64,000 nucleotides of DNA from Candidatus Falkowbacteria bacterium (lineage in GTDB: Bacteria; Patescibacteriota; Patescibacteriia; UBA11705; JABHMO01). Every line of letters starts with the position of its first letter. The stretch's first letter is position 1. A model generated the notes under the pieces. It saw only the letters and a program-made list of their open reading frames with translations, was not told the DNA's origin and searched no databases. Location of the stretch: NCBI GenBank assembly GCA_018674305.1, contig JABHAL010000007.1, positions 6,976-70,975 on the forward strand, read 5' to 3'. Below, in pieces: positions 4,501 through 53,521 of the stretch. Both the position numbers and the translations under genes were made by a program.

Positions 4501-6916
4501 CCCACGTAATGGAAGCCGTCGTATTAGCACTGTGAGTTAAACTAGTCGGTGCATCTGCGTCAGTATAGGCACTGGCTGTACTTGAAGCAATCCCTGTACC
4601 TTTGGCATTAACGGCTCTAACATAAACTGTATATTGAGTATTAGCACTTAAAGAATCCCCACCATCAGTAATTGTTGTTTGAGTATAATTACTTGTAGCT
4701 GCGCCGACGGAACCAATTAAAGAATCATCAGAAGATCTATATACATAATAATCAGTGGCCCCAGCTACATCATCCCAATTCCAATCAATTGATCTGGTAT
4801 CTCCCGCAGAAGATGCCAATCCAGTTGGCCGAGCAGGCGGGGTAATTATCTCTGCCGTTTCTGGAGTTGAGGCGGTGTTCAAAGTACCATCTCCGTTATA
4901 TGATGAAAATCTAAATTTATAACAAGTAGCCGCACTTAAACTGGTAACTGTGTACGGACTGCTAGAATTATCTGAAACGTTATCAAACAAGGTTGTTTCA
5001 TATCCATCACAATCAGTATCTTGTTCAATTTTTAAACCCGTTTGCGACTGATCCGTCCAAGTTAAAGTCTGTTGATAACTAGCTTTTGTCGTCGCATCGG
5101 CCAATCCAACCCCTGAAACTTGATTCGCAGCAGTATACTTTGCAATTTCAACCGCATTACTCAGATGCCCATAATCATCTTCTGTCCAGATATTAGCCAC
5201 ATACTGAGTATTTGCAGTTAAACTTCCAATCTCATTAGTACCCCCTTGTGTATATGAACCTGAAGCAATAGTAACATCCAACGTATCCGAAGTAGCGACA
5301 CCAGAGGCACCAGCTTTATAGTAAACATTGTATTCGTTTAAATTTGTATCTGTGCCAACTGCACCTAGAGTATGAACAATTGTGCTTGTCGTAACGGTAT
5401 CTAAAGTCAGATTACCTGATGACACCGGAGCCACATTATCTAGAGTTAAAGTTGTTGTCACAGCTGTACCATCAACCACATCATCATTAGGTGTTATTTG
5501 AATACAGTAAGTACCGTCCGCAGAAGCTACATCAGTTGCAGTAGACCAGTCAAAAGTTACTGTGTTCGCACCCGATCCGGTATCAATCCTATAAGTAGCA
5601 GTTGTACCTATTTGATATGTATCATCATTTTCAACACTTGGCACGCCTCCACTATCACTGGTGTCTGCTGTAGAACTTACAGCTTCATCCATTGTTGGGT
5701 CACTGGTCCCGCTACTACAATCAGATCCAGCTTTATATTCAACTTTCAACATAACATCATCATCATCACCGTCATCAACCTCAACTGAAATATCGACTGT
5801 GCCAGTTCCATCTGTTTTTTGTACCGCTGAATTAATCGTCACAGTTGGCACCGAATTAAGAGGATCATCAGTAAAAATACCAGCACTACCAGCAGTAGCA
5901 ACCCCATAAGCTGTACCACCACTAACATCAACTGTTGAGATACTATTTGTATTATAATAAGCAATATAAATAATTCCACCACCGCCACCACCACCATCAT
6001 CACCACTAGCATCACTAGCGTTACCACCTTTTGCCGAGACTGATATCGGTGTTCCAGTAACAGTCCCTGCAGTGATTTTTATAGCACCCCCACCGCCACC
6101 ACCAGCTCCGTCTAAAAAATGCCAAGGGTTTCTACCAGCAGCCGTGATTGTACCATTAACAGTCAAAGTATCAGAAACATTCAATATAATTAAACCACCA
6201 CCAGCCCCGCCCAAAGCAGAATTATCACCAGAATCAGCTGCACCAGCACCACCAGCTCCTAGATATATTGGATTTGTTGCACTATCATATGCAGAACCAC
6301 CTGCATTGTCAGTATCACCAACACCACCAGCTCCATAATGAGCACCACCACCACCACCTTGATTTGCTCCAAATTTTCCTTCACCATCAGTACCAACTGG
6401 AGCATAACCATTAGCACCACCACCACCACTAGCACCACCATCAAAACCCAGTGCGTATACATTGATCGAGCCACCAGACTGGACATCTATATTTGCAGCA
6501 GTGATATCAACTTCATAAACATGTGTGGTGGAATTATTTCCATGATTTAATGTCCCTCCTGACTCGACGGTCAATGTTCCTGATATTGTCTGAGTGTTTA
6601 TATTACTTTGTGTCAACGTTCCACCACTCGCAATCGTAATATTAGCAACTTCATTAATAGTATAATCTCCAATATCGACAGCATGACTTACAGTCACACT
6701 ATCCCCCACCTGAGGAACTGTGCTAGCACAATTACTCCAAGTACCAACAGTAGCCCAAGCACCAGCACCAGCAGAGGTACAGCTAGAAGCTTGTGCCTTT
6801 TGCATAGTCAAAGATGGGGTGTCACCTGGAAGAAAATTAAAACTAGCGCTGTATATAATTACAATCAGCACAGTGGCTAAATTAATCCACTTAATTTTTT
6901 TCTTAAGCTTTTCCAT
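1535..6916 (-). CDS. Giant cell-surface protein (1793 aa)
   Basis: N-terminal signal/anchor (KKKIKWINLATVLIVIIYSA) followed by a Gly-rich region. Then come a Big-like domain, FN3-like repeats, a (PVDE)n acidic Pro-rich linker, TM segments and two CarboxypepD_reg/CnaB-like beta-sandwich modules ('DKAGRYEFILNPGKYYVEV'). Confidence 0.85.
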   Translation of the reverse strand: MEKLKKKIKWINLATVLIVIIYSASFNFLPGDTPSLTMQKAQASSCTSAGAGAWATVGTWSNCASTVPQVGDSVTVSHAVDIGDYTINEVANITIASGGTLTQSNINTQTISGTLTVESGGTLNHGNNSTTHVYEVDITAANIDVQSGGSINVYALGFDGGASGGGGANGYAPVGTDGEGKFGANQGGGGGAHYGAGGVGDTDNAGGSAYDSATNPIYLGAGGAGAADSGDNSALGGAGGGLIILNVSDTLTVNGTITAAGRNPWHFLDGAGGGGGGAIKITAGTVTGTPISVSAKGGNASDASGDDGGGGGGGIIYIAYYNTNSISTVDVSGGTAYGVATAGSAGIFTDDPLNSVPTVTINSAVQKTDGTGTVDISVEVDDGDDDDVMLKVEYKAGSDCSSGTSDPTMDEAVSSTADTSDSGGVPSVENDDTYQIGTTATYRIDTGSGANTVTFDWSTATDVASADGTYCIQITPNDDVVDGTAVTTTLTLDNVAPVSSGNLTLDTVTTSTIVHTLGAVGTDTNLNEYNVYYKAGASGVATSDTLDVTIASGSYTQGGTNEIGSLTANTQYVANIWTEDDYGHLSNAVEIAKYTAANQVSGVGLADATTKASYQQTLTWTDQSQTGLKIEQDTDCDGYETTLFDNVSDNSSSPYTVTSLSAATCYKFRFSSYNGDGTLNTASTPETAEIITPPARPTGLASSAGDTRSIDWNWDDVAGATDYYVYRSSDDSLIGSVGAATSNYTQTTITDGGDSLSANTQYTVYVRAVNAKGTGIASSTASAYTDADAPTSLTHSANTTASITWGWSSGGAQDTYYASTLTPSDNSGWIPGMSWAQSSLLANTAYEVSVKARNEDLTETSSVTTTVYTSQNTPTGISTSSILIDSITMSALGTLDNLTSGGSGLYFENVTAGTNSGWVQTNSWQNTGLSESTTYQYRVKSRNGDGEETSFSSGTNVKTLGARSGGGGGSDPAPAPIPVPIPDPVPEIEPPILNEPADGIVTNNNEPYVIGASAEGSMRVVIYIDNIEVYSFVSQPDKNFVWQVGDSLIDGLHTIKVANEDVCSDIHTVLVDTNPPDAPSITLMSIIVGEEVDNKIGADVTISGKIKADTEQILIYLDDTILIDTIEVDSDSWRYSFEDSYYPGEHKVSVKAIDEAENLSVEPTEESFFLVSSQPPVDDPVDEPVDEPVDEPVDEPVDEPGDDPVDEPFNEPAADEPIDEPIDEPIDDPVIPPVVPPIKPVVPPVIPEADGGQADDLQPGDDGQPGDNDDEGPGEPVVPLPVVPNTGDDGGVPVVDDWQGPIVKDDIIDVVVGQSHVPDNIKLDPELIEIYEDIDAKKSWDKTEQEIKFEIIYETEKLMDGKVVQSTTKGIAKVISVITRVDIVKAQQQVEKSVKAVVRTTKIVQKATVDNPALEKANETVKTPAAATVTATSVASLATVGATGASGAGVLTYLQFLFTQPLLLLTKKRRRGWGIVYDAASKKPVDLAVVRVYNAETKKLVRTKVTDKAGRYEFILNPGKYYVEVQKKDYKFPCKLLNNVQKDGQFEAVYYGETIEVRERDAIAMPIAMDPVKMVQKGEKVLKLYWFKRMQTLLTLIAPVAAIISFIINPSLKFALLIIGQIVLYLLFNRLAKGDKPKSWGLVRDVENKKTLSRTIVRVFETRFNKLLETQVTDSKGRYAFLVGNQEYYVTAEKPGYYQKRSEVFNLEKETSGYLTEDFKLRSHKLGKGIEEAQKKDQPVTLRTGLGQQKEEVVEGKQKVVRPEGQKFKGEIKDVDLNEMHEDYYNLDSLNKK
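3227..3393 (-). repeat. In-frame 12-bp tandem repeat encoding (P-V/I-D-E)n, about 7 perfect plus degenerate copies
   Basis: gactggatcatc / aactggctcatc units are visible directly in the sequence. Confidence 0.8.
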
Positions 6917-29907: not shown

Positions 29908-30627
29908 ATGCCAAAAACTGGTTTCTCAACAGGAAGTTTACGCAGAGCAAATGTTCCCTTTGATGAAAGAATCCAATTGTATCATTCATTAGGAGCGGAT
30001 GCGATTGAACTTAGCTTTGCAACACCCACTGAATTATTCGGGTATAGGTTATCAGATCAATCAAAGCAAAACATTGAAAAATTTTCGGCTGTTTCAATTC
30101 ATGCTCCATGGAAAGAACTTAGATACAATTCAGATTCTAAAACTCAGGAAATAATCAACAAACTAAAAGAATTATCTGATCAACTTCCCATTACAGGGTT
30201 AGTCTTACATCCAGATATTATTGATGATTTTAAGATATTAGAACAATCAGGATTACCATTTTTATTAGAAAACATGGACAGAAGAAAAACCTATGGGACT
30301 CATCCAGAACATTTCAACGAATTGAAAACAAAATGTGACTTTAGGTTTGTTTTGGATGTTGAACATGCATATGAACATGATCCAAGCATGAAACTTGCTA
30401 AAGAATTCGTTGAAGTTATGGGAGATAGATTAAACCACATGCACGTTAGTGGCTGTAGTGACTCAGCGGGTCATGTTCCTACTTATTGCGCTATTAACAA
30501 AAAAGAAATTACTGAAATACTAAAACTAAAATTAGCAGTACCAATAATACTAGAGGGAGCCATATTAGAAGATGTTTCAAATTCAATCTCAAAAGAACTA
30601 GATTACATTAGAAGTTTTGAAAATTAA
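29908..30627 (+). CDS. Xylose-isomerase-like TIM-barrel protein (sugar phosphate isomerase/epimerase or AP endonuclease 2 family)
   Basis: 'GADAIELSF', 'SIHAPW', 'LLENMD' and 'HMHVSG' motifs. Confidence 0.6.
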   Translation: MPKTGFSTGSLRRANVPFDERIQLYHSLGADAIELSFATPTELFGYRLSDQSKQNIEKFSAVSIHAPWKELRYNSDSKTQEIINKLKELSDQLPITGLVLHPDIIDDFKILEQSGLPFLLENMDRRKTYGTHPEHFNELKTKCDFRFVLDVEHAYEHDPSMKLAKEFVEVMGDRLNHMHVSGCSDSAGHVPTYCAINKKEITEILKLKLAVPIILEGAILEDVSNSISKELDYIRSFEN

Positions 30628-30650
30628 TAAATTAACATCAACCCATACTT

Positions 30651-31136
30651 ATGCTAAAAATCAAACCATTCAAACAATCTTACGGAATGTGTGGGGCCGC
30701 TTCAATGAAGATGGTTATGGATTATTATGGAATTATTCACTCTGAAAAATATTGGGCAATGAAAATCGCCAACAAAATCGATCCAAAAACCGGTAAGATT
30801 ATCCTTTTTAACGGACTATCTGATAAGAAGATGTTGAGAATCGCTAAATCATTGGGATTTAAAGGAGTTTGGAAAGAAGAAGCCTTAATTTCAGAACTCA
30901 GAAAATACATTAGCAAAAACATTCCGGTAATCGTCAATTGGTACTCCCCTGAACAAGGCGGACATTTTTCTGTAGTCGTGGGCTTTGAAAAAAATAATAT
31001 TTTATTGGCTGACCCACACTTTGGCAAAATAAAAAAAATGTTAACTGACGATTTTAAGGACAAATGGTTTGACTTTATTGGACCACCCGCCAAAAAAAAT
31101 TTACTGGTAAGACCAATTGTTGTTTGGTACAAATAA
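30651..31136 (+). CDS. Papain-like (peptidase C39-like) domain protein
   Basis: 'QSYGMCGAASMKMVMDYYG' active-site Cys context and a downstream 'GGHFSVVVG' His. Confidence 0.45.
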   Translation: MLKIKPFKQSYGMCGAASMKMVMDYYGIIHSEKYWAMKIANKIDPKTGKIILFNGLSDKKMLRIAKSLGFKGVWKEEALISELRKYISKNIPVIVNWYSPEQGGHFSVVVGFEKNNILLADPHFGKIKKMLTDDFKDKWFDFIGPPAKKNLLVRPIVVWYK

Positions 31137-31165
31137 TATACTACAAAATTCCAATATCAAAAAAA

Positions 31166-31188
31166 ACCGGCGTGAGCCGGTCTTTTTT
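31166..31188. terminator. Bidirectional terminator (ACCGGCGTGAGCCGGT plus T-run)
   Basis: GC-rich stem flanked by an A-run and a T-run. Confidence 0.6.
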
Positions 31189-31191
31189 ATT

Positions 31192-31668
31192 TTATTTTTT
31201 CAATTGTCTTTTCTTCCAAAATATATATACAAATAATATTAACAAAACCGAGTAATTCCCTATCATAAACCATCCATTGCCCCAGCTAATACCTGGGAAC
31301 TTCCATTCTGATACTGGCCACAAGAATGGGGTCGGCAGAAAATCTCTGGTGTGAGTAAAAAGATCAAAAACAATTGCGATCGGCCAGGACAGCATATAAA
31401 CTGGAAATTTTTTCAGAACCAAGAACACAATCAAAATACATGCACCTGCCACAAACAAACTATGGCTGATATTATAAAGTGTGAATGTCCAATCAGGAAT
31501 ATTATTCAAATCTGGCTCACCAAACTTGCGCTCAAAAATAATTTTATAAATAGCAAAAATCAACCAAGACATTGAATCTGGTAATAGGCCGAACAATACG
31601 GCTAGCTTAACTTGTTTTAGTTTGTGAAATAAGCCATAACTCCACAAACCGTGAGCTAGATAGTCCAT
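31192..31668 (-). CDS. Integral membrane protein (YdjM-like metal-dependent hydrolase?)
   Basis: 158 aa with 4 TM helices and an N-terminal 'MDYLAHGLW'. Confidence 0.4.
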   Translation of the reverse strand: MDYLAHGLWSYGLFHKLKQVKLAVLFGLLPDSMSWLIFAIYKIIFERKFGEPDLNNIPDWTFTLYNISHSLFVAGACILIVFLVLKKFPVYMLSWPIAIVFDLFTHTRDFLPTPFLWPVSEWKFPGISWGNGWFMIGNYSVLLILFVYIFWKKRQLKK

Positions 31669-31804
31669 GATTCAATTATAACATGTTCCAAAATAGTCAA
31701 CAAAAAATACCTTCATCCAACCTGTATAATCTTTACATGGTTTATTTTAGAGACAAAATTTACAATTTTAAGGTTTCGACTTTTTGACCCAAAAAGTAGC
31801 AAAA

Positions 31805-31888
31805 AGGCTGGGGCTCCACTCCTTCGACAAGCTCAGGATGACAAGTGGAGTTTACCCCGAGCCAGTCGAGGGGCCCCAGACCCCGCCC
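31805..31888 (+). ncRNA. GC-rich structured element of unknown class
   Basis: Nested stems (GGGGCTCCACT / AGTGGAGTTTACCCC). An extended -10 TGTATAAT lies at 31723-31730. No CDS is present. Strand and extent are uncertain. Confidence 0.3.
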
Positions 31889-31965
31889 TGCTAATAATAT
31901 TCTAAGCGTCAAATCAATTAAGCAACAACCTAATTCTAATTGAAAAATGACTTGTTATTTATGAA

Positions 31966-31995
31966 TAAAAAAGCCCACTGAATTGTTCAGTGAGC
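31966..31995 (-). terminator. Terminator of the VWA gene
   Basis: GCTCACTGAA-CAA-TTCAGTGGGC plus T7 on the minus strand. Confidence 0.55.
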
Positions 31996-32010
31996 TTTGT
32001 AACAGTCCCA

Positions 32011-33663
32011 TTAACGAAGGTTGCGCACAACCACTTGCAGGGCTGTACCAAACTCTTCCAGACACTCTTCCATTGAAGTGTAAATCAATTCAATAGGATA
32101 AATATCTGGAACGTGATGCACTCCAACCATGAAATGCACAACAATGATCCCCCTAGCCAGAAGTTGTTGAGTCATTTTTCTAACCAGAGCAATATCATCT
32201 GGCCCATCATCGCAAAGAACGAGAAGTACCTTACGACGCTTGGTCGACCTAGCCAACTTTGAACCAGCGCTCTTCAACATGTGAGTATCTGAATTAGCAC
32301 CTTCACCTTCTAGGTTAACAAACCCAGAGTCTCGACTGGCTGGGCCAAAATCGTACACTGCCTCCGAACTAAAACCCCAAAGATGTCCTTCACAAGCTGG
32401 ACTTAGTCGTAAAATCGCTTCGGTAAACAGCGTAGCAATTCGTTTGGCTTTTTCCAGTTTGCTTTCACTCATTGAACCGCTGGTATCAACCGCTAAATGA
32501 ATTTCAGCGTCAATGTTACGTTCAACAATTGTTTCCGTAAAAACATCTGGAAATCCAAGCGCAATACCAGCTGCCTCATCCATATCCAGATCACCCTCAT
32601 ACTGACTATACAGCTCCGAATATTCTGGGTTTTCCAAAAATCGAAACTTTCGCATCAAGGGTTTAAGCAATTCTCTATTTTGCTGTAAATACTTTTGATA
32701 CAGCGCATGATTAGCTGAATCTGCTTTTACTTTTTTAACTTTAACATTGTTCTTTAACCCGACTGAAATTGGGCCAGGGTGAACCATGTTCAGAGATTTC
32801 AACTTTTGAGCCAGTTGTTTCAGCCCAGTGTTACGCACCGTAGCTACATGTAATTTAGCAATCTGCCTCAGCGCCTTTAACAATGCCTTGGGCAACTCCC
32901 CTTTTCCTCTTGCAAAATTGCTAAAGAACTGAGAGAAGAGCCAAAATTCAATCTCTGGCCGTTCATCTTCGGAATTCCGTATTTGCCATTCGCCAAGAAT
33001 GTTTTTGACTTTTAGAGCTCGCCAATAAAACTCTTCTGGCGTTGCCGTAACCAGGATTTTTCTACGCAACTGCTTCATTGCTCTACGAGTTTCTTTAAAC
33101 TTCGGGCTTTTGTGCCACTTAGCAGCAAAGAAAAAATCCTCATAAACATCTTCAGCTGGCCAGTTACGTAAGAACTGGTACATTTGAGCCTTATTCATGC
33201 CACGTTTAGTCAAAAAACCCTCGTACTTTTCATAGCGTGAATTTACACACAAGTACAACAATCGACCACGCAAGGCCTTAGCAAAACCAGGCGAATCATC
33301 AGCTAACAAAATATCATCCTTGCGATCCAACATGATTTGCAAGATATGATACAATGTCCGGTCTTCCTTGTCCATTGCCCTTTTCAATAACTCAGGACCA
33401 AATGGTGAAAACAGGATATGACCAGCTTCATGATAAACGCTACCATAGCCAACCTGCTCAAACCCTTTCACAAAATAGTATGGGTTCATGAAAATATCAG
33501 CCTTGCAGTCGGTAGCCGCAGTTTCAACACGGGGATCCCAAATAAACCTGAATGGCCGATTAATAATCATCGCCACATCATTGCATAGATAAGGAAACTC
33601 TCGTTCCAACAAGGCCATATCTTGTTCTGATAATGGCTTGTCAAATAAAAGGTCTGGATTCAT
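32011..33663 (-). CDS. DUF2201-like protein: N-terminal putative HExxH metallopeptidase domain plus C-terminal VWA (MIDAS) domain
   Basis: 'YHEAGHILFSPFG' (HExxH), 'HLAVDTSGSM' MIDAS DxSxS motif, 'VLLVLCDDGPDD'. Confidence 0.7.
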   Translation of the reverse strand: MNPDLLFDKPLSEQDMALLEREFPYLCNDVAMIINRPFRFIWDPRVETAATDCKADIFMNPYYFVKGFEQVGYGSVYHEAGHILFSPFGPELLKRAMDKEDRTLYHILQIMLDRKDDILLADDSPGFAKALRGRLLYLCVNSRYEKYEGFLTKRGMNKAQMYQFLRNWPAEDVYEDFFFAAKWHKSPKFKETRRAMKQLRRKILVTATPEEFYWRALKVKNILGEWQIRNSEDERPEIEFWLFSQFFSNFARGKGELPKALLKALRQIAKLHVATVRNTGLKQLAQKLKSLNMVHPGPISVGLKNNVKVKKVKADSANHALYQKYLQQNRELLKPLMRKFRFLENPEYSELYSQYEGDLDMDEAAGIALGFPDVFTETIVERNIDAEIHLAVDTSGSMSESKLEKAKRIATLFTEAILRLSPACEGHLWGFSSEAVYDFGPASRDSGFVNLEGEGANSDTHMLKSAGSKLARSTKRRKVLLVLCDDGPDDIALVRKMTQQLLARGIIVVHFMVGVHHVPDIYPIELIYTSMEECLEEFGTALQVVVRNLR

Positions 33664-33931
33664 TTTATTACCTCATTTTTTTAATGATCAATATTTTATT
33701 TAAAAAATGAAAGATTCAAGATTTAAGGTCAAAGACCCAGGAAAGGTTCAGGGCTCAAGACACGAAGAAAAAAAAGGCTTTATTATTTAGTCTAAATCCG
33801 CCTAGTCTCTTACTCCTTGAACCTTACTACTTCCCTTTCCCTTTGCTCTTGAATCCTTAACCCTTTATCTTTTATACTATTCTATTTCTAATTTCAAGTT
33901 TCTCTTGGAACCTTTGAAACCAGAAATAGAA

Positions 33932-33979
33932 GCGGGAAATGAATTTCACTTCCCGCTATGACTGATGTTTGCTAATGGT
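33932..33979. repeat. Repeat unit 0 of the structured-repeat family
   Basis: Hairpin AGCGGGAAATGAATTTCACTTCCCGCT plus downstream GTTTGCTAATGG motif. This is the same architecture as units 1-9. Confidence 0.7.
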
Positions 33980-34195
33980 GAGCTTGGGTTTGTCAGCCAC
34001 TGTCAGGCCGTAGCCTGCAGTGAAGGAAACAACAATAGCGCGTCAGCGCGACGTTGACGAGCAAAGGCCGACCTGACTGAGGCTGACTAACTGCACTCAA
34101 GCTAAACCTAACGGAACGCTTCTTACTGACATTGATACAATATCAGCTTAACGAAGATCTGATTTAGAAAAATCAGCGGTTCAAACAAACTCAGT

Positions 34196-35347
34196 CTATA
34201 TTGAAAGATCAGCAATACTTTTTCTCATTGCAGAAAAAGCTTTAGCTACTTCACTGTTGGCATCTCTGGGTTTTCGGTCCCTTGTGCCATTGACACCAAT
34301 TTCACCTTCATACCACCCCAGGAATCCCTTGATAATAGCGGACTCCAAATCAACACCATGCTTGAGCAAGTAGCCTACTGTTCGACAACCACGATAACTG
34401 GGTGAAAACGCCAAATTGCCAGCACGCTCTGCAGTTCGCAAATTACGTGCAACTTCAACAATTTTCAGAGCCTGTGATTCCAAAATGCCGACTTCAGAAG
34501 CCAGCTTTTGAGACTCATAATCCTTAGGCATCTCCCTGACCCGCATCGGTGCAAAGCGATCCTTAAGTGCCGCATCAACACCATGTGTCCCCAGATATTC
34601 ATCACCCATGTTCATAGTGCCCATAAAGTGAATATTCCCTGGCAACACAATTGTGTTACTACCTTCCGCGGTAGGAAAGGTGACCTGACGAGTGTCATCG
34701 AACAAGCCATGCATACTCTCATTAGTCTTGGCATGCACTCGGTTAATTTCATCCAGCACTACCAAAAACTGCGTTGCCAAACCTTCTCTCTCCGCAATCA
34801 TGGCGCGTTCAATGTAATCGTAAAAGCCAGAACGGATAAAAAGACTTGAGCCATTGGCTGCCGCATTGGAGCCAAACAGATCTGTGGTCTTTTTCATGGT
34901 GTAAACATCAACCTTATACGGTTGCTGCCAGCCCAAAGCCTGAGCAATGGCAAAAGGTAAAGTTGTCTTGCCAGTTCCTTTCGGTCCAATCAGCAAAACA
35001 TCAATACCTTCGTTAAGCCAAACCAACAAAGTTTTCAGGTCGAGATTCTCGATCCAAAAATTGCTCAATTCAGCAATACTTTCCCATTTCTTCAACTTTT
35101 GCACTTTGGCAACCAATTGCACAATAGCGATTTTTTGACGCCCTTTACCAGGCCGCCTTTCAACCAGTTCAACCTGCCAGACATCGCCATTTTCAATCTT
35201 GATTCCACTTGGCGGATGGTTCACTTGAACCAGGGTACTTCGCATATCTTCATCTACGAATTTCCAACCCAAGACACCACTGGCATCAAATTTTGCTCTC
35301 ACTTTCAGGATATCAGCCATTTTTACCTCTCTTTTTGTAATGTTCAA
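34196..35347 (-). CDS. MoxR-like AAA+ ATPase (AAA_5 family)
   Basis: Walker A 'LLIGPKGTGKTTL' and Walker B 'FLVVLDEINRV'. Confidence 0.8.
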   Translation of the reverse strand: MNITKREVKMADILKVRAKFDASGVLGWKFVDEDMRSTLVQVNHPPSGIKIENGDVWQVELVERRPGKGRQKIAIVQLVAKVQKLKKWESIAELSNFWIENLDLKTLLVWLNEGIDVLLIGPKGTGKTTLPFAIAQALGWQQPYKVDVYTMKKTTDLFGSNAAANGSSLFIRSGFYDYIERAMIAEREGLATQFLVVLDEINRVHAKTNESMHGLFDDTRQVTFPTAEGSNTIVLPGNIHFMGTMNMGDEYLGTHGVDAALKDRFAPMRVREMPKDYESQKLASEVGILESQALKIVEVARNLRTAERAGNLAFSPSYRGCRTVGYLLKHGVDLESAIIKGFLGWYEGEIGVNGTRDRKPRDANSEVAKAFSAMRKSIADLSI

Positions 35348-35397
35348 ATTTCCAAATTCTTATCACCTATTTAATCAAATAAGTTTCAAGAATTTGA

Positions 35398-37634
35398 GCT
35401 GGAAGTGTTACACTTCCAGCTAAGTTAGTTTGCTAAGGACCTGTAGGACCGTAACAGTTTCGCTACGAAATGAGATTTGCTCATTGTCATTCGTAACGAC
35501 TTTTCGTTACGAATGCGTAGCGACAACAGTTACGGTGCCGTAGCGTGAACCGCATGAGTCCCGAAGGGCGGGGAACGCTACGAGGACTAGCAATAATATA
35601 CTTAAACGCAAACCTTGTATTGATACAATACAAGTAAAGCTTTTGCCAAAGCTTCAAACAAACTAACTTCTAATCTCTAAATCCAATCCTTTAGCTTCAG
35701 AGATTAAAGGGGAAATGGTTCACTTCCCCTGAATCAGTTTGCTATGGCTGTTGTAGGCTTGTGAAAAACTTGCTGTCAAGAATGCAGCAAGAATTGCAGC
35801 AGGGTTGCAGCAAATTTGTCACAAGGCCGTCACGGGAACTTCCCACCGGAGTGACCGTGAGGAACCCTGGCAACACCAAATTAAACCTTAACCTTACATT
35901 GCTACAATGCAAGCAAAGGACAAAGTCCTCCAACAAACTGATTTTCAACCTTTAAATCCAAATCCTTAGATTCAAAGGTTAAAGGGGAAATGATTCACTT
36001 CCCCAAAGCTGTTTTGTTTGCATAAGGTTGCTTCTGTTTGTGACGCAAGCCGTAGGCGGGGTCACAAACCGAACCCCAGTTGCGATGCGCGACTGGGTGA
36101 GAGCACTGGCTAAACCTTAAGGGTTGTTGTCTCACTGACTTTGATAACAAAATCAACTATAACGACAACTCACTACAAGTAGTGACAACAACAAACCAAA
36201 CTACAGCTCACCTGAACAATTAAATATCAAGTTTAACTACTCAGGTAAGCCGGGGAAATGATTCACTTCCCCGGAGCTGTTTTGTTTGCATATGGTTGCC
36301 GGAGTCTGTGACACCTAAAGCGAAGTGTAGTGTCACAGATCAGGCTAGCCCCACGCCCTCAGGGGAATACGTGGGGCTGGACTGGGTACTGGCGCAACCT
36401 TATGATCGTTGTCTCACTAACTTTGCAAGTCAAAGATAGTTAAAACGACAACTCACTATAAATAGTGACAATTAACCAAACTACAGCTCACCTGAATAAT
36501 TAAAATCAATTTAACTACTCAGGTAAGCCGGGGAAATGATTCACTTCCCCGGAGCTGTTTTGTTTGCATATGGTTGCCGGAGTCTGTGACATCTAAAACG
36601 CAGTGTAGTGTCACAGATCAGTTTAGCCTCACGCCCTTTAGGGGAAACGTGGGGCTAAACTGGGGAACTGGCGCAACCTTACGATCGTTGTCTTACTAAC
36701 TTTGCTAATCAAAGCTAGTTAAAACGACAACTCACTATAAATAGTGACGATTAACCAAACTACAGCTCACTTGAATACTTTAATATAAAACACTCAAGTG
36801 AACTGGGGAATGTTGCATTCCCCATGTGCTAGTTTGCTATGGTTAATGATCCAGTCTCAGTAAAGATTTCACAGAAAACTTTCTGAGACTGGCCAGTGCA
36901 GGGGTTCCATTAACAGGCGAAGCCCGGGAGCCCAAGCTGGTAGTGGTTGGCAACTACCTATAAAAATGCCTATCTTATTTTGCTACAAAATAAGTTTTAG
37001 CAGACTTTTGCTAAAGCCCAACCAACAAACTAACTTCAACTAAAAAGCTCAAACAGATTGAACACTTTAGTTGAAGGAGGAATGCTGCATTCCTCCTAAT
37101 AAAAGTACAAATTTGCTATGGCACGAAAAGCAACGCGACATTTTGACCTTGCTTCTAAGCGAAGCGCAACAGAGAAAGGTCAAAATATAGTTCGCCATCA
37201 ACCAGGGATCGTTATCCAAACCAATCTTGATTCAAGACTGGCAGTCTACCATGATATTTACACGATTGGGTAGAATCTATAACAATCAAACAAATCTGCC
37301 AACCACTAATTTCAAATTAATTAAAAGCATTGGTTGACTGGAGAATGCTGCATTCTCCAGTAGGGGCGCTCCCCAAAAAGCTAGTTTCATTGGTTGTGAT
37401 GTTATCAGGATTTCGAAGAAATCCGGATAACTTGTGACGTTGAGGGTCGGTGGTGTTAACCAGAAAACCCGAAGCGTCAAAAAACACTGGCTGGAGCTAT
37501 CCAACCCTACAAACTTGTTTTGAATTCAAAACAAGTACGACCCGTGAAAAAGGTCAAACAAACTAGCTTTCAACTTGTAAACTTTAACTCAAAGCTACAA
37601 TTCACAAGTTGAAGGGAAACTCTAGGAGTTTCCC
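35398..37634. repeat. Tandem array of nine ~260-280-bp non-coding structured repeat units
   Basis: Unit-initial GC hairpins at 35398-35420, 35709-35729, 35984-36004, 36250-36274, 36528-36552, 36805-36823, 37076-37096, 37338-37360 and 37614-37634. Each is followed after 7-17 nt by a G/ATTTGC(T)A(W)GG motif (absent from truncated unit 9). Each unit ends with a long-range inverted repeat. Hairpin stems differ between units by paired compensatory substitutions. Units 4 and 5 are about 90% identical. Confidence 0.85.
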
Positions 37635-37654
37635 TTGTAATTATACTAGAACCA

Positions 37655-39208
37655 CTACTTCAATGCCATATGCGCCAAACTGTGAGCACTGGTATTCAAT
37701 TCACGTGGCACATGGTGAAAACGCACTGTACCAATTTCCTTAACAAGTGCCTTCACCTGTGCAACCAGGGTTCGCAAATGAGGCTTACTCACTGCAAACT
37801 TGCCGTTAAGCTGATTCACAACCAGCATACTGTCGGTAAAGCAGTCCAACTCAGCAATGCCAAGTTCTTTAGCTGCCGTCAAACCAACAATTATTGCTTG
37901 ATATTCAGCCTGATTACTTGTCGCCTTCCCAATCAGCTGGGAAATAGTTGATACTTCAGTTCGATCCTTAATCAAAACTGCACCGATACCAGCCTGGTAA
38001 GACTTCCTGGCCGCACCGTCAACAAACAATAGATTGTCACCAAGCAACTGAGAAGAAACATCACCTTGGCCGTCAATCACTACCATGCTCAACTGCTTTG
38101 CCAAATCCTGCAAACCACTCGGCAACAAGGCGTTGTCCAAATATTGCAATGACTTCGCAACCTTGCCAGCATGCAAACGATCTTCAATCTTGCCAACCAG
38201 AACGCGCAGTTTGGATGGTAGCTTCTCCGGATACAACTGACGAACCGCACCCAATGTGCCATTCACCTTACCCAGAATGTGCTCATCCCAAACTTCGATT
38301 TTGAGCCAGTTGTTAAAAGCAGCTCGTAACTGATTCACTTTCCGCGGCGCCATGGTCAAACGACCATCAGGACAAATCACGATCCCAGTTACAATCGGAA
38401 CTTCACCGGTTTCAGGACTGTAGTACTTAGTTTTGTCAGGCCGAGTGTGAGGAATAAAGCCATGCTCCTTGATTAGCGCAAGGATCTTGGCCCTCATTTC
38501 CTCTGGGATCTCTTTGTCAGAAGATACCGTAATGTCATCAAACCAAGAAGTCATGTTAAAACCCTGCAAAGGGCTTGAACTTTCGTGCAGATAACTGAAT
38601 ATAGCTGTGTCCATTTTGTAACACACAATACCCAGAATACGCGGTGAAGTTGGTGGGCCTTGCGGAAGTCGATCATGCAAACAAAGCAAATCAACTACTG
38701 CCTCCAGCATGTTCTTCACGTCATCTTCCAACCAAGTAACATCACCAAACTGTCGGAGCATGAATCGAAATGGTTTTTGCAAACACTTACGAATTCGACT
38801 GCGAAGAACTGTAGGATAAGCATTAATAATATCAACGCCAAACGCAACCTTGTTACCCATGTGCGCAGCCGCATGCTCCACGATCCCAGTTCCACCCTGG
38901 CAACCATAACGAGAAAAATGGATCGGAATCTGATCCAAAAACTGCGCCTTGATTGATCGTTGTACAGTCTTCAACTCAGCACAGGGCGCTGCAAAATAGC
39001 GATAACCCTTGCCACGACCCTTGAACTTACGCCACTCTCGGTATGCCTTTCCCTGACGAATCTTGTCCAAAGCAAAGTTCCAGCTAGCCTTATCCAGCTT
39101 AAAAAGCAGACGCAAATACTGTGCCAAACGCTCGGACAACACCAGGATGGTGCCAAAGTCCGTGTACTCGTCCAGAGGATTGACCTTTTTCTTCTTTTCC
39201 GTTGGCAT
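37655..39208 (-). CDS. Reverse transcriptase fused to a C-terminal RNase H (archaeal type 1 / RVT_3-like) domain
   Basis: RT motifs 'RYFAAPCAELKTVQRSI', 'GVDIINAYPTV', 'LPQGPPTSPRILGIVCY' and 'WFDDITVSS' (YxDD-type). RNase H motifs 'VDGAA..GIGAVL', 'SNQAEYQAII', 'CFTDSMLVV' and 'HHVPRELNTSAHSLA'. RBS AGGAGG. TTGACA -35 on the minus strand at 39282-39277. Confidence 0.85.
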   Translation of the reverse strand: MPTEKKKKVNPLDEYTDFGTILVLSERLAQYLRLLFKLDKASWNFALDKIRQGKAYREWRKFKGRGKGYRYFAAPCAELKTVQRSIKAQFLDQIPIHFSRYGCQGGTGIVEHAAAHMGNKVAFGVDIINAYPTVLRSRIRKCLQKPFRFMLRQFGDVTWLEDDVKNMLEAVVDLLCLHDRLPQGPPTSPRILGIVCYKMDTAIFSYLHESSSPLQGFNMTSWFDDITVSSDKEIPEEMRAKILALIKEHGFIPHTRPDKTKYYSPETGEVPIVTGIVICPDGRLTMAPRKVNQLRAAFNNWLKIEVWDEHILGKVNGTLGAVRQLYPEKLPSKLRVLVGKIEDRLHAGKVAKSLQYLDNALLPSGLQDLAKQLSMVVIDGQGDVSSQLLGDNLLFVDGAARKSYQAGIGAVLIKDRTEVSTISQLIGKATSNQAEYQAIIVGLTAAKELGIAELDCFTDSMLVVNQLNGKFAVSKPHLRTLVAQVKALVKEIGTVRFHHVPRELNTSAHSLAHMALK

Positions 39209-39252
39209 TTTCAGCCTCCTATTTTAATATAATGAACATACTTTAACTGATA

Positions 39253-39282
39253 ACTTTAGCAAATTTTCTAACTTTTGTCAAG
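39253..39282 (-). promoter_or_regulatory. Putative sigma-70 promoter of the RT gene (TTGACA-17-TAAAGT)
   Basis: Read from the minus strand. The -10 element is weak. Confidence 0.3.
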
Positions 39283-39311
39283 ATTTAGGTCAATTTAGTC
39301 TAAAACTGCAC

Positions 39312-39340
39312 AAAAAAACAGTAAATTAATAATTTACTGT
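39312..39340 (-). terminator. Terminator hairpin ACAGTAAATTA..TAATTTACTGT plus T7
   Basis: Immediately follows the stop of ORF 39341..39628. Confidence 0.55.
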
Positions 39341-39628
39341 TTATCTCATAGGCGAATTGTTCTTCCAATTTTCCACTTCCAGCTCATCGGCTATTTTTCG
39401 TTTAAGTTTAGCTGTCAATTTAATAATTTTTTTACATTTCTGACAAGTAATTACCGCGCAACTTAAATGTGCCTTAGTTACAACTTGAGAATGCTCACAA
39501 GGAAGCTGAATCCTTTTTGTCATTACCATAACGTTCCCCTCCGTAACGTTCATCTCGTTAATTAATCTATCTATACCATATCTATTAATAAATAACAACC
39601 CACTGACTTGACATAATTTTATTTTCAT
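39341..39628 (-). CDS. Small Cys-containing hypothetical protein
   Basis: 95-aa ORF (possibly starting at the internal Met 'MNVTEG'). 'CEH..C...TCQKC' pattern. Confidence 0.3.
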   Translation of the reverse strand: MKIKLCQVSGLLFINRYGIDRLINEMNVTEGNVMVMTKRIQLPCEHSQVVTKAHLSCAVITCQKCKKIIKLTAKLKRKIADELEVENWKNNSPMR

Positions 39629-39708
39629 TTATAATATAGTCATAGAGGCCAGAGGGCCTTTTTAGAATACTTTCATATAATAAAAACACATAAAGATAAC
39701 AAATCAAT

Positions 39709-39900
39709 ATGGATTTCAAAGACAACCGAATGGTCAAGTATTTAATTGAAGCTAAGCAGGAATTAAAGAAAGTAACTTGGCCAACAAAAAAAGAAACAAC
39801 CAAACACACTTTAATTGTAATTGGACTAAGTTTATTCGTAGCTGCATTCCTGGGTGTTTTGGACTTTGCATTTTCTAGAGCACTAGCACTCTTTTTATAA
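39709..39900 (+). CDS. secE: Preprotein translocase subunit SecE
   Basis: 'AKQELKKVTWPTKKETTKHTLIVIGLSLFVAAFLGVLDF' matches the SecE core. It precedes nusG. Confidence 0.8.
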   Translation: MDFKDNRMVKYLIEAKQELKKVTWPTKKETTKHTLIVIGLSLFVAAFLGVLDFAFSRALALFL

Positions 39901-40020
39901 AAAAGAAGGGACAAAAGTTATAATTCAGGTAACCGATTATTGTTACCCCCTTTATCTCCTTTATCCCCTTGGCGTGAAGTTATTCGAAGAATATACTTCA
40001 TGCATTTATCCCCTTTTAAT

Positions 40021-40563
40021 ATGGCAAAACAAGTAAGACGTGGGAAACGTTGGTATGTCATTCATACTTACTCTGGTTACGAAGAAAATGTTTCTGAAAA
40101 TTTAAAACAGAGAATTGAGTCAATGGACATGGAAGACAAAATTTTCAACATTCTAATTCCCACAGAGAAAAAAATAAAAATTAAAAACGGCAAAAGAAAA
40201 ATTATCACTGAGAAGATTTTTCCTGGTTATGTATTTGTAGAACTTCTAGTGACTGATGACTCTTGGTACGTTGTAAGAAACACTCCAAACGTAACTGGTT
40301 TCATTGGAACAGGAACAATTCCTACACCTATTTCTGAGAAAGAAATGAAAGAGCTACAAAAACGAATGGGCGTGGACGAACCAAAATACACAATTGATGT
40401 TTCAGTCGACTCCCCTGTCAAAATCATTGACGGACCATTCAAGAACTTTGAAGGTAAAATTTCAGCGGTTGATGATGAAAGAGGAAAGATTAAAGTGTTA
40501 GTTAGTATGTTTGGGAGAGAAACTCCAATTGAATTGGACTATTTACAAGTAACGAAAATATAG
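40021..40563 (+). CDS. nusG: Transcription antitermination factor NusG
   Basis: 'KRWYVIHTYSGYEENV' NGN domain and C-terminal KOW 'GPFKNFEGKISAVD'. The start is the internal ATG at 40021. Confidence 0.9.
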   Translation: MAKQVRRGKRWYVIHTYSGYEENVSENLKQRIESMDMEDKIFNILIPTEKKIKIKNGKRKIITEKIFPGYVFVELLVTDDSWYVVRNTPNVTGFIGTGTIPTPISEKEMKELQKRMGVDEPKYTIDVSVDSPVKIIDGPFKNFEGKISAVDDERGKIKVLVSMFGRETPIELDYLQVTKI

Positions 40564-40734
40564 ACAAAAAGGAAAAAAGAGCAAGAAGGCTAAAGAAGAT
40601 TATACAATTATTATAGTTCTATTATCCCCTTTACCTCCTTAAGCTCCTTTATCTCCTATAACCAAGTTGCTGAGATTTTATCATTGTTCCATATTCCATG
40701 TTTCATGATAGATACCCCAGCTCTTACAAACAAT

Positions 40735-41157
40735 ATGGCAAAAAAAGAATTAACAAAGATCAAATTGCAAATTCAAGGTGGTAAAGCCACTCCGGCCCCA
40801 CCAGTTGGACCAGCCCTTGGTCAACATGGTATTGCAATTCAGGATTTTTGTAGTCAATTTAATGAAGCGACCAAAAATCAAGGTGGAGACATTGTCCCAG
40901 TTGTTATTACAGTATACGAGGATCGCAGCTTTGATTTCATAATGAAAACCCCACCAGCTTCTGAGCTTATTAAAAAAGCTGCTGGAATAAAAAAAGGTGC
41001 GAGTAATCCATTAACAGATAAAGCTGGTAAAATTACGAAACAACAACTTCGAGAAATCGCTGAAAAAAAGTTACCAGATTTAAACACCAACGACGTAGAT
41101 CAAGCTGCCAAGATTATTGCTGGAACAGCTAGACAAATGGGTATTACCGTTGAATAG
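40735..41157 (+). CDS. rplK: 50S ribosomal protein L11
   Basis: '[33 protein letters not shown]'. The start is at 40735. Confidence 0.92.
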
Positions 41158-52527: not shown

Positions 52528-53521
52528 ATATAAAGTCGTTCACTAGATTATTCGCTTCATTATAATCCTTAATCCAATGGATTGTTTTATCTCTTTTGAA
52601 CCAGGTTAACTGCCGTTTGGCGTAACGGCGCGTATCTCGTTTAACTAAACGAACGGCCTCTACGCCGTTAATTTCATTATTTAAAAATTGACAAACCTGC
52701 CGATAACCAATACCGCTCATAGAAGAAGAACTACAGTCATAACCTTTTTTGATCAAAGACTTTACTTCTTCAACTAAACCTTCCTTCATCATTTGATCTA
52801 CTCGTTTGTCAATTTTTGCATACAGTTCTTCTCTTGGTAAAGCTATCCCAAGTTGTAAAAATTCAAATTCACCTTCCCCCACTTGAGGTTCCAATGGCTT
52901 TTTGGTTTTTAAAATAATTTCTGCCGCGCGCACAACTCTACGTGAATTGGAGGTGTCAATTTTATTTTCAATTCCTGGATCGATTTCCCTTATCTCACTT
53001 AGCAAAGCCTTAATCCCCTTTTTCTCAATCTGCTTTTCTAACCTGGCTCGAAGTTTCTCATCAAAACCGTCTAATAATTGATAATCATTTACCAATGCAG
53101 AAATATATAGTCCGGTTCCACCGACAATAATTGGCATCCGACTAGGATTGTCTTTTATAATTTGTTTAACTTGTTTTAACCAGTCGTCCAGACTAAACTC
53201 CTGATTCGGTTCAATAATATCCACCATGTATTCTTGAATTTGGTCCGAATGTTCCAAGTTTTTTTTCTTTAATCCTTGCTCCTTAATCTTTCCTGGCTCT
53301 TGGCTCTTGAATCCTGAATCCTCACCAACAAGATAATATTTTCCCTCTTTCCAAACACCTGGATCCTTGTTGGTGCCAATATCCATCTGTTTATAAACCT
53401 GGCGCGAATCTGCAGAAATCAAAAAACCGTTAAACTGTTTTGCGAGTTTGAGAGCGATACCTGATTTACCACTGGCGGTTGGACCAAGGACGATGATTAC
53501 TTTTTGTTTTTTCTTGTTCAT
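52526..53521 (-). CDS. miaA: tRNA dimethylallyltransferase
   Basis: 'VIIVLGPTASGKSGIALKLA' P-loop and 'ADSRQVYKQMDIGTNK'. The start is assigned to the ATG at 53521. Confidence 0.85.
   Translation of the reverse strand: MNKKKQKVIIVLGPTASGKSGIALKLAKQFNGFLISADSRQVYKQMDIGTNKDPGVWKEGKYYLVGEDSGFKSQEPGKIKEQGLKKKNLEHSDQIQEYMVDIIEPNQEFSLDDWLKQVKQIIKDNPSRMPIIVGGTGLYISALVNDYQLLDGFDEKLRARLEKQIEKKGIKALLSEIREIDPGIENKIDTSNSRRVVRAAEIILKTKKPLEPQVGEGEFEFLQLGIALPREELYAKIDKRVDQMMKEGLVEEVKSLIKKGYDCSSSSMSGIGYRQVCQFLNNEINGVEAVRLVKRDTRRYAKRQLTWFKRDKTIHWIKDYNEANNLVNDFI

Follow-up and report, generated by a model that had tools for sequence, protein, structure and literature searches.

A putative retron-like locus with a tandem array of structured RNA units and a MoxR-VWA gene pair in a Candidatus Falkowbacteria bacterium and its relatives

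Retrons are a major class of antiviral systems and a genome-editing tool, and to our knowledge all described retrons use a single non-coding RNA (ncRNA) and none has a MoxR-VWA partner. This paper describes a locus in which a reverse transcriptase (RT) gene, a tandem array of structured RNA units, and genes for a MoxR-like AAA+ ATPase and a HExxH-VWA protein follow each other on one strand. It lies in a stretch of 64,000 nucleotides (nt) from a Candidatus Falkowbacteria bacterium (GenBank assembly GCA_018674305.1, contig JABHAL010000007.1, positions 6,976 to 70,975), which is called the window below and provides the position numbers used throughout. The locus is read here, with moderate confidence, as a retron-like system in which the MoxR-VWA pair is the dedicated partner module, and it looks like an undescribed type of such a system in ultra-small bacteria of the candidate phyla radiation (CPR).

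The retrons, which have been classified into types I-XIII (Mestre et al. 2020, PMC7736814), resemble this locus in their retron-clade RT with NAxxH and VTG motifs, in the adjacent structured ncRNA that is closed by an inverted-repeat stem, and in the conserved accessory genes of the operon, ATPase-containing effector modules being known in types I-A and I-B. They have a single msr-msd RNA, however, whereas here a tandem array of 1 to ~15 different units is located downstream of the RT gene and a two-hairpin junction punctuates both units and genes. Moreover, in the present system an RNase H domain is often fused to the RT, the hosts are CPR bacteria, and the RT has as partners a MoxR ATPase of the AAA_5 branch and a HExxH-VWA protein, which occur in no described type. 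Multicopy single-stranded DNA (msDNA) would be the predicted product of this system.

Intact AAA_5 ATPases that adjoin a VWA/MIDAS protein are encountered in NorQ-NorD, CbbQ-CbbO, CobS-CobT, GvpN, and Midasin/Rea1, of which NorD and the Rea1 MIDAS domain provide the VWA folds closest to the one described here, and Midasin, which acts on ribonucleoprotein, the closest ATPase profile. Unlike these pairs, the present one has no metalloenzyme client gene, its place being taken by the RT and the RNA array, while the partner has an N-terminal HExxH domain and the ATPase an extra N-terminal domain of ~100 residues. The closest described architecture is that of the jumbo-phage pair of MoxR and a metallopeptidase-vWA protein (Iyer et al. 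2021, PMC7824862); in this pair, as in that of the DUF2201 proteins (PF13203 and PF09967), a MoxR ATPase is likewise combined with a VWA protein with N-terminal HExxH; CobS/CobT-like pairs in a phage context were reached by profile search at ~1e-23. The phage pairs differ in that neither an RT nor RNA arrays are linked to them.

The only association of an RT with MoxR-vWA that was found described is that of the VMAP ternary conflict systems of multicellular bacteria, which occur with diversity-generating retroelements (DGRs; Kaur et al. 2020, PMC7159879). These systems resemble the present locus in combining MoxR-vWA and an RT in a predicted conflict system and in the concept of an NTPase "thresholding" switch, but they involve a different RT clade and a different logic: here the RT is of the retron type, template and variable repeats as well as a VMAP or FGS effector are lacking, and the hosts belong to the CPR. 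In DRT2 and DRT9, too, a structured ncRNA of ~250-300 nt lies next to the RT gene, and in their case it serves as template; their RTs are of another clade, however, and the units found here are many, differ from each other, and have no stop-free frame (no Neo-like repeat gene). In the literature searched, of which the coverage was incomplete so that an earlier description is possible, no retron linked to MoxR, vWA, or CPR was found, and term searches within the retron classification (PMC7736814) and within a 2026 SPIRE metagenome survey of retrons yielded no mention of AAA, VWA, or CPR. Within that literature three features are without precedent, i.e., the multi-unit ncRNA array, its punctuation by junctions, and the MoxR-VWA partner.

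Conservation and layout of the locus

The order RT, non-coding gap, MoxR, gap, VWA was found on one strand in all 31 related loci with sufficient sequence, among them 15 of 15 genome loci that were retrieved through the ATPase. When metagenomes were searched via the RT, MoxR and VWA genes were present on all contigs on which the RT has at least 42% identity and is followed by at least ~3.5 kb of sequence, and the RT contigs that lack these genes do so because they end too soon. The MoxR, VWA, and RT families each comprise ~80 clusters with a sharp drop-off, and they share their contigs. The initial annotation of the window had placed the ATPase-VWA pair within an RT and RNA-array locus, and this comparison of neighbourhoods ties the pair to that locus, so that a coincidental co-localisation can be dismissed.

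Homologues were obtained almost only from metagenome-assembled genomes (MAGs) of CPR/Patescibacteria. A profile search covered 1.84 billion representatives, and a further tier of VWA homologues was again located in loci with an RT, a repeat-bearing non-coding gap, MoxR, and VWA. The triad is retained in distant loci such as L069, at 33-34% identity, and L070, at 26-28% identity; beyond these, at E ~1e-20, the relatives are AAA_5/VWA pairs that lack an RT, including a CobS/CobT-like pair in a phage-like context and a giant HEAT-repeat protein beside an AAA_5 gene. No further gene was conserved with the RT-MoxR-VWA triad in the loci compared. Among the 2.9 million viral contigs of IMG/VR the MoxR profile retrieved generic AAA_5 proteins only, with at most 29% identity, and tblastn of the VWA protein against GenBank phages gave no match.

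Some of these loci deserve separate mention. In L070 (GCA_900089805.1, FLOH01000056.1) the RT at 3784-4632 was not called by the annotators, who called two short minus-strand open reading frames (ORFs) instead, and the 2.2 kb of "empty" DNA that follows it holds ~7 repeat units; loci of this kind are easily missed by annotation-based surveys. A complete RT-array-MoxR-VWA locus (L014, JBDGRK010000035.1) is present on a 7.9-kb contig that was binned as a Candidatus Nanohaloarchaea (DPANN) archaeon, and several loci are on MAGs that were automatically labelled "uncultured Gammaproteobacteria". These cases could represent binning or labelling errors, or true spread beyond the CPR.

The operon reads, on one strand, promoter, RT with or without RNase H, tandem RNA array, MoxR, 0 to ~9 more units, VWA, and terminator, and its features in the window are listed in Table 1. 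The MoxR and VWA ORFs are both on the minus strand, at the coordinates that the initial annotation had assigned to them. The promoter-like site just 5' of the RT start is, judging from its sequence, the probable operon promoter, and the terminator-like hairpin probably marks the operon end. As no comparable or otherwise strong terminator was detected between the promoter-like site and the VWA stop, the window probably holds one operon that extends from 39281 to 31970, and the co-transcription that had been suggested for the genes and the array is plausible.

Table 1. Features of the RT-array-MoxR-VWA locus, in positions of the window
Feature	Coordinates	Strand	Details and evidence
Promoter-like site	39253..39281	-	TTGACA-17-TAAAGT with extended TG; consensus scan, pattern match only
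Retron-type RT (residues ~50-330) with C-terminal RNase H domain (~393-516)	37655..39208	-	517 aa; Pfam RVT_1, RVT_3, RNase_H
Leader junction J0	37550..37652	-	hairpins 1 and 2 directly after the RT stop, then 5' strand of the unit 1 closing stem; covariance-model E = 8e-9; fold
RNA array with eight structured tandem units, U1-U8	35350..37572	-	263-323 nt; repeats, folds, junction-model matches
MoxR-like AAA+ ATPase, AAA_5 branch	34196..35320	-	374 aa from ATG; Pfam AAA_5
Ninth unit, U9	33880..34199	-	fold; z = -9.9; junction-model match 33864-33974
Palindromic element	33690..33880		~190 nt, purine-rich (AGGATTCAAGAGCAAAGG... and its complement); between U9 junction and VWA start
Two-domain HExxH-VWA protein	32011..33663	-	550 aa, identical to P0085; alignment, AlphaFold models
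Intrinsic-terminator-like hairpin	31970..31998	-	13 bp and T-run, 12 nt past the VWA stop

The G+C content of the locus is higher than that of its flanks, which are of a housekeeping nature, with secE-nusG on one side and gyrB and ftsW-like genes on the other. A 95-aa ORF at 39341-39628 on the minus strand, between the RT promoter region and secE, encodes a Cys-rich C...C...CxxC segment and has 68% identity in the same-site relative L067 only, being absent from the other loci of the system. This ORF 5' of the RT and a 158-aa membrane ORF 3' of the operon were considered as members of the system and rejected because they are not conserved in other loci. The palindromic element resembles a small element of the MITE/REP type (miniature inverted-repeat transposable element or repetitive extragenic palindrome); a second copy is present at ~53220-53360, 20 kb away, and the orthologous locus L067 lacks the element. 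Probably it does not belong to the system.

Structured RNA units and the two-hairpin junction

The gap between RT and MoxR in the window measures 2.3 kb and is devoid of credible ORFs. The units that fill it, which across loci have a length of ~230-320 nt, fold into a closing stem P1 (NNNNGTTTG ... CAAACNNNN) within which two short hairpins precede a large 3' domain. P1 is followed by a conserved GC-rich hairpin 1 (GGGGAAGUG-NNN-CAUUUCCCC) and then by an AT-rich hairpin 2, which make up the junction, and folding yielded this same architecture for every unit of the window. In U9 the closing stem begins at the MoxR stop codon, and the orthologous unit in L067 is 86% identical. Compared with shuffled sequences, the folding z-scores of the units ranged from -6.6 to -12.3, and those of coding controls were between -2.8 and +0.3.

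A covariance model of the junction, consisting of the P1 3' strand, hairpin 1, hairpin 2, and the next P1 5' strand, and iterated once, gave 66 matches at E ≤ 0.05 in 0.49 Mb of sequence, all of which are on the operon strand and within the two gaps. The matches come from 19 of the 27 sources, and in the GC-rich loci that were missed by the model the same architecture was recognised on inspection by eye. Covariance models were used in place of an iterated nhmmer search on the junction, which drifted and produced reverse-strand palindrome matches; a strict regular expression for the closing stem overlooked those with bulges. The cells of hairpins 1 and 2 were paired in 93.8% of cases, and 20 of 20 pairs had compensatory double changes, which was reached by none of 500 shuffles and was far above the slid controls, although fitting of the alignment to the model makes these figures lean towards structure. 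Hairpin 1 also has a conserved G·U pair, which is compatible with the operon strand only.

The pairing of P1 was assessed by swapping of partners, in which cognate strands had a median energy of -16.3 kcal/mol as compared with -9.8 for strands of other loci (p = 2e-9) and -12.65 kcal/mol for non-cognate units of the same locus (p = 0.0015). Pairing of the 3' strand of a unit with the 5' strand of the next was rejected, with a median of -7.4 versus -16.3 kcal/mol, and is also ruled out by the first and last units, which have no such partner. Between the window and L067, paired positions changed half as often as unpaired ones (0.097 versus 0.206), and 62 of 122 changed pairs stayed paired, versus 37% in slid controls. 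The units contain no stop-free frame and have no match elsewhere in the window, including any coding sequence, which excludes a DRT2-like repeat gene as well as a DGR template. Over the region 30000-41000, Rfam 15 at E ≤ 1 gave chance-level small RNA matches only, and the array had a single 35-nt chance match to phage sequences. In its overall shape each unit looks like a retron msr-msd RNA, with a closing stem comparable to a1/a2, short hairpins, and a large 3' stem domain.

The total non-coding length of the loci varies from ~730 nt to ~4.4 kb, corresponding to roughly 2 to 15 units, which are distributed over the two gaps in varying proportions: gap 1 measures at least 312 nt in all cases, and gap 2 between 32 and 2781 nt, a full unit between MoxR and VWA being absent in five loci. 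The junction punctuates genes and units alike, as it follows the RT stop, abuts the MoxR start, and precedes the VWA start. In 14 loci it lies directly against the MoxR start, and of the ~10 loci with a junction before VWA most have it 15-50 nt 5' of the start, the distance being larger in the window, L014, and L055. A unit and hairpin had initially been annotated directly 5' of both partner genes; this holds for MoxR, where a unit and its two-hairpin junction end at 35340, but for VWA it is not universal, and in the window the VWA start is ~200 nt beyond the U9 junction on account of the palindromic element that is inserted there and is absent from the closest relative.

Locus L067 occupies the same chromosomal site as the window locus, its genes are 88-91% identical in nucleotides, and its array is collinear with that of the window except for two extra units. 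Units U4 and U5 of the window (36211-36769) are 92% identical and have a single counterpart in L067, and are a recent tandem duplication. The comparison of the two loci thus indicates a turnover of the arrays in which units are gained, lost, and duplicated. In L015 two neighbouring junctions (at 9109 and 9496) are identical.

The reverse transcriptase, the ATPase, and the HExxH-VWA protein

The RT can be assigned to the retron clade on the basis of profile hidden Markov model, PDB, and motif matches. Its best PADLOC matches are retron RT models (best 4e-32), its best NCBIfam match is retron_St85_RT (1e-35, under the curated cut-off of that model), and the RTs matched in the PDB are those of retrons only, i.e., Ec86, Ec78, Ec67, Ec83, and Kva2. 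Retron RTs are characterised by NAxxH between RT2 and RT3, of which the H is most conserved, and by VTG in RT7, of which the G is most conserved (PMC7736814). In region X the family has the consensus TNAxxHAG with an invariant H116, the window RT having HAAAH at 112-116, and in region Y it has VTG at 273-275, with an invariant G275 and a T274 that is conserved in at least 90%. The first Asp of YxDD and the motif-A Asp are conserved in the family, and the window RT has FDD at residues 223-225.

RNase H is fused to the RT C-terminus in at least seven loci (the window, L004, L010, L015, L039, L056, and L067). In L043 (8001-8378) and L057 (8001-8369) it is encoded immediately upstream of the RT instead, so the link between the two functions is kept in two arrangements. 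RNase H acts on RNA-DNA hybrids, and its recurrent fusion to or position next to the RT is therefore indirect evidence that the RT makes complementary DNA (cDNA). In the RNase H domain of the window the first three carboxylate motifs (VDGA, AEY, and TDS) are intact, and the fourth catalytic carboxylate (37655-37700, RT residues 505-510) is replaced by His, with SAHSL where relatives have RADAL. Across the RT family the N-terminus is strongly basic (KKKRRRRRK-like), and members without RNase H end in a low-complexity tail rich in Lys and Arg; these sequences suggest extra contacts with nucleic acids.

The ATPase belongs to the AAA_5 branch of MoxR-type proteins, as had been annotated initially, with Pfam AAA_5 (PF07728) matching at E = 3.1e-13 and 50.4 bits versus a cut-off of 22, and with intact Walker A (GPKGTGKT, 34964-34987) and Walker B (VVLDEINR, 34739-34762) motifs. 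AAA_3, the family of MoxR proper, scored 23.5, under its cut-off of 27. The ATPase ORF spans 34196-35347 if read from TTG, but the true start is the ATG at 35320, which is preceded by GAGAGG, since MADIL is the N-terminus both of the homologues and of P0001, an identical database protein of 374 aa. Among 23 ATPase sequences G121, K127, T128, D199, E200, N246, R264, and R319 are invariant, a set of motifs that is compatible with ATP hydrolysis, with putative roles for N246, R264, and R319. The family profile has its best match in the AAA domains of Midasin (4e-43), followed by NorQ, McrB, CobS, and CbbQ (~1e-12), and the best TIGRFAM match is GvpN. Residues 1-100 (34996-35320) form an extra conserved N-terminal domain (GDVWQVELV...) with nearly invariant W57 and D55; these ~100 residues had no Pfam match, and the N-terminal 105 residues found nothing among PDB sequences. 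This domain is a candidate for binding of nucleic acids or of a partner.

The neighbouring protein joins a HExxH domain and a VWA/MIDAS domain, in agreement with the first description of the sequence, its motifs being HEAGH at 33418-33432 and DTSGSM at 32470-32487. An alignment of 27 homologues shows no variation at H78, E79, and H82 of the HExxH motif, at D113, D116, and D117 of a DRKDD segment, or at D393, S395, S397, and D485 of the MIDAS; together with T460, which is at least 90% conserved, the last four residues make up the DxSxS...T...D pattern. This invariance indicates that the HExxH and MIDAS motifs are real and under selection, and no chance strings. The AlphaFold model of the protein has a pLDDT of 84.6, and that of the N-terminal 290 residues, modelled separately, one of 86.6. 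The C-terminal half is a VWA domain, for which Foldseek matched the NorD VWA (1.8e-9), the Rea1/MDN1 MIDAS (3e-8), and many further VWA domains. The MIDAS domains of NorD (as in NorQD complexes) and of Rea1/MDN1 are those that dock on AAA_5 rings. At the sequence level 23 of the 27 members match VWA at E ≤ 1 and 19 match CobT_C, the latter weakly; the window protein's own matches stay under curated cut-offs (Pfam VWA, 18.2 bits versus 23.8), and NCBIfam gave nothing for this protein. The domain is divergent, so that its fold and motif decide the assignment, and these are CobT_C/NorD/Midasin-like.

The model of the N-terminal domain (~290 residues) has a helix, a three-stranded sheet (39-59), and then a helix (69-85) that carries HExxH, and in this model the topology is zincin-like. 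The label "DUF2201-like", under which the protein had been described, found no support in Pfam: none of the 27 members matches PF13203 or PF09967 at E ≤ 1, and one distant homologue (P0249) has a sub-threshold match to PF13203 (3.2e-4, 20.8 bits versus a cut-off of 23.2). The architecture is therefore similar to that of DUF2201, while the Pfam searches do not support membership of that family.

Interpretation as a retron-like system and its alternatives

In the retron-like reading, the RT would bind each unit and copy part of it into DNA, and the recurrent RNase H fusion or adjacency argues that RNA-DNA hybrids are made. The resulting RT-RNA/DNA particles would interact with a MoxR-VWA machine, in which the MoxR hexamer may bind its VWA partner by docking of the VWA/MIDAS domain on the ring, as NorD does on NorQ and the Rea1 MIDAS on its own ring; the docking and remodelling mechanism of NorQ-NorD has been published (PMC13036017). 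ATP-driven remodelling would then switch the complex. One option is that the zincin-like domain is released or activated as a toxic effector once the nucleic-acid component is disturbed, as in retron-style abortive infection, and another is that remodelling serves the assembly and recycling of particles. The presence of multiple different units would provide multiple sensor or bait species. MoxR-VWA is accordingly considered a conserved accessory or effector module that is found mainly in CPR/Patescibacteria, with the effector role as the predicted one: within the retron-like reading it is clearly preferred to that of a pure chaperone. A role in defence is evenly balanced between yes and no; it is the analogy with retrons that argues for it, as the flanks are housekeeping genes and not a recognisable defence island.

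Several observations weigh against the retron-like reading. The RNA is downstream of the RT, whereas in classical retrons it is upstream, and no invariant G that could act as the branching G was assignable from the unit alignments. The second Asp of YxDD is an Asn in 9 of 24 aligned RTs (YADN, WTDN, and similar), and synthesis of cDNA or msDNA by the RT is a prediction. PADLOC has no model that matches MoxR or VWA, and, with secE-nusG and gyrB as neighbours, no recognisable defence island surrounds the window locus. Finally, comparison of the HExxH domain with solved structures yielded no significant match to any peptidase (best Foldseek E of 0.5, with faint matches to BlaR1 and jannalysin), and a protease activity of the modelled domain is for that reason unproven.

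The alternative that comes closest to the retron-like reading is that MoxR-VWA is a pure maturation chaperone, which assembles or recycles the particles, loads the RT on successive units, brings in a metal, or removes the RT from its products, with the RT-RNA/DNA particles accounting for the whole biological output. Chaperoning or gating of the RT-ncRNA complex, which the initial annotation had proposed, is a reasonable suggestion, since the characterised MoxR-VWA pairs (NorQD, CbbQO, CobST, and RavA-ViaA) are all remodelling or metal-insertion chaperones, Midasin, the closest solved relative of the ATPase, remodels a ribonucleoprotein, and junctions abut both genes, which suggests a tight coupling to the RNA. 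However, this explanation leaves the invariant HExxH domain and the invariant DRKDD segment unaccounted for, and known retrons always have an effector, while no other conserved gene is present here to fill that role. An effector role is at least as likely, and the pure chaperone is regarded as possible rather than probable. A more elaborate version of the retron-like reading, which we hold to be doubtful, is that the array is an expandable cassette library with a turnover like that of CRISPR arrays, each unit being reverse-transcribed into a separate RNA-DNA bait or sensor, and that MoxR-VWA acts as a Midasin-like, ATP-driven remodeller which turns disturbance of a particle into activation of the zincin-like domain.

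A selfish retroelement appears improbable. It would have the RT-RNase H and the array as a mobile element, or as carriers of non-autonomous passengers, with MoxR-VWA aiding particle assembly as has been proposed for phage and archaeal-virus MoxR-VWA pairs, among them the MoxR and metallopeptidase-vWA pair of jumbo phages, for which a role in virion assembly was put forward (PMC7824862). Retrotransposons and retroviruses typically have RT-RNase H fusions, the G+C content of the locus exceeds that of its flanks, genomic contexts differ between genomes, and units are gained, lost, and duplicated. Nevertheless, there is no integrase or endonuclease, copies of units were confined to the locus, both in the 64-kb window and in the 0.49 Mb of related loci searched, and the loci of the window and L067 are at the same chromosomal site; moreover, close relatives are lacking among 2.9 million viral contigs and GenBank phages, and the retron clade, to which the RT is assigned, is not mobile. 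A DGR variant, in which the units would serve as template repeats for the mutagenesis of a target gene as in the DGR-linked MoxR-vWA (VMAP) systems, would fit the fact that RT-linked MoxR-vWA is known only in that form (PMC7159879), but it is effectively refuted by the lack of a template/variable repeat pair, as no unit matches a coding sequence of the window, and by the RT, which matches retron and not DGR models; an Avd-like gene, a VMAP effector, and an FGS or C-type lectin target are also absent, and the VWA C-terminus is well conserved instead of hypervariable. That MoxR-VWA serves an unrelated cellular function beside the RT has only the general commonness of MoxR-VWA pairs in its favour and is refuted by synteny to the point of being negligible: order and strand are kept in every one of the 31 loci, even where identity has fallen to 26-28%, the families of the three proteins have the same extent, and RNA units flank the MoxR gene on both sides.

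If the retron-like reading is correct, the array would be a natural multiplexed set of RT templates, and the partner module, an AAA+/MIDAS remodeller equipped with a metallopeptidase-like domain, would follow a new effector logic. Direct tests in heterologous hosts are feasible for the units, which are compact, and for the conserved hairpin of the junction. The cassette-library version, if true, would amount to a multiplexed retron and to the first nucleic-acid client of a bacterial MoxR-VWA pair; more generally, bacterial MoxR-VWA pairs may have a nucleoprotein client, in parallel to eukaryotic Midasin. For the CPR bacteria, whose defences are poorly known, the locus would provide a candidate immune or RNA-DNA system.

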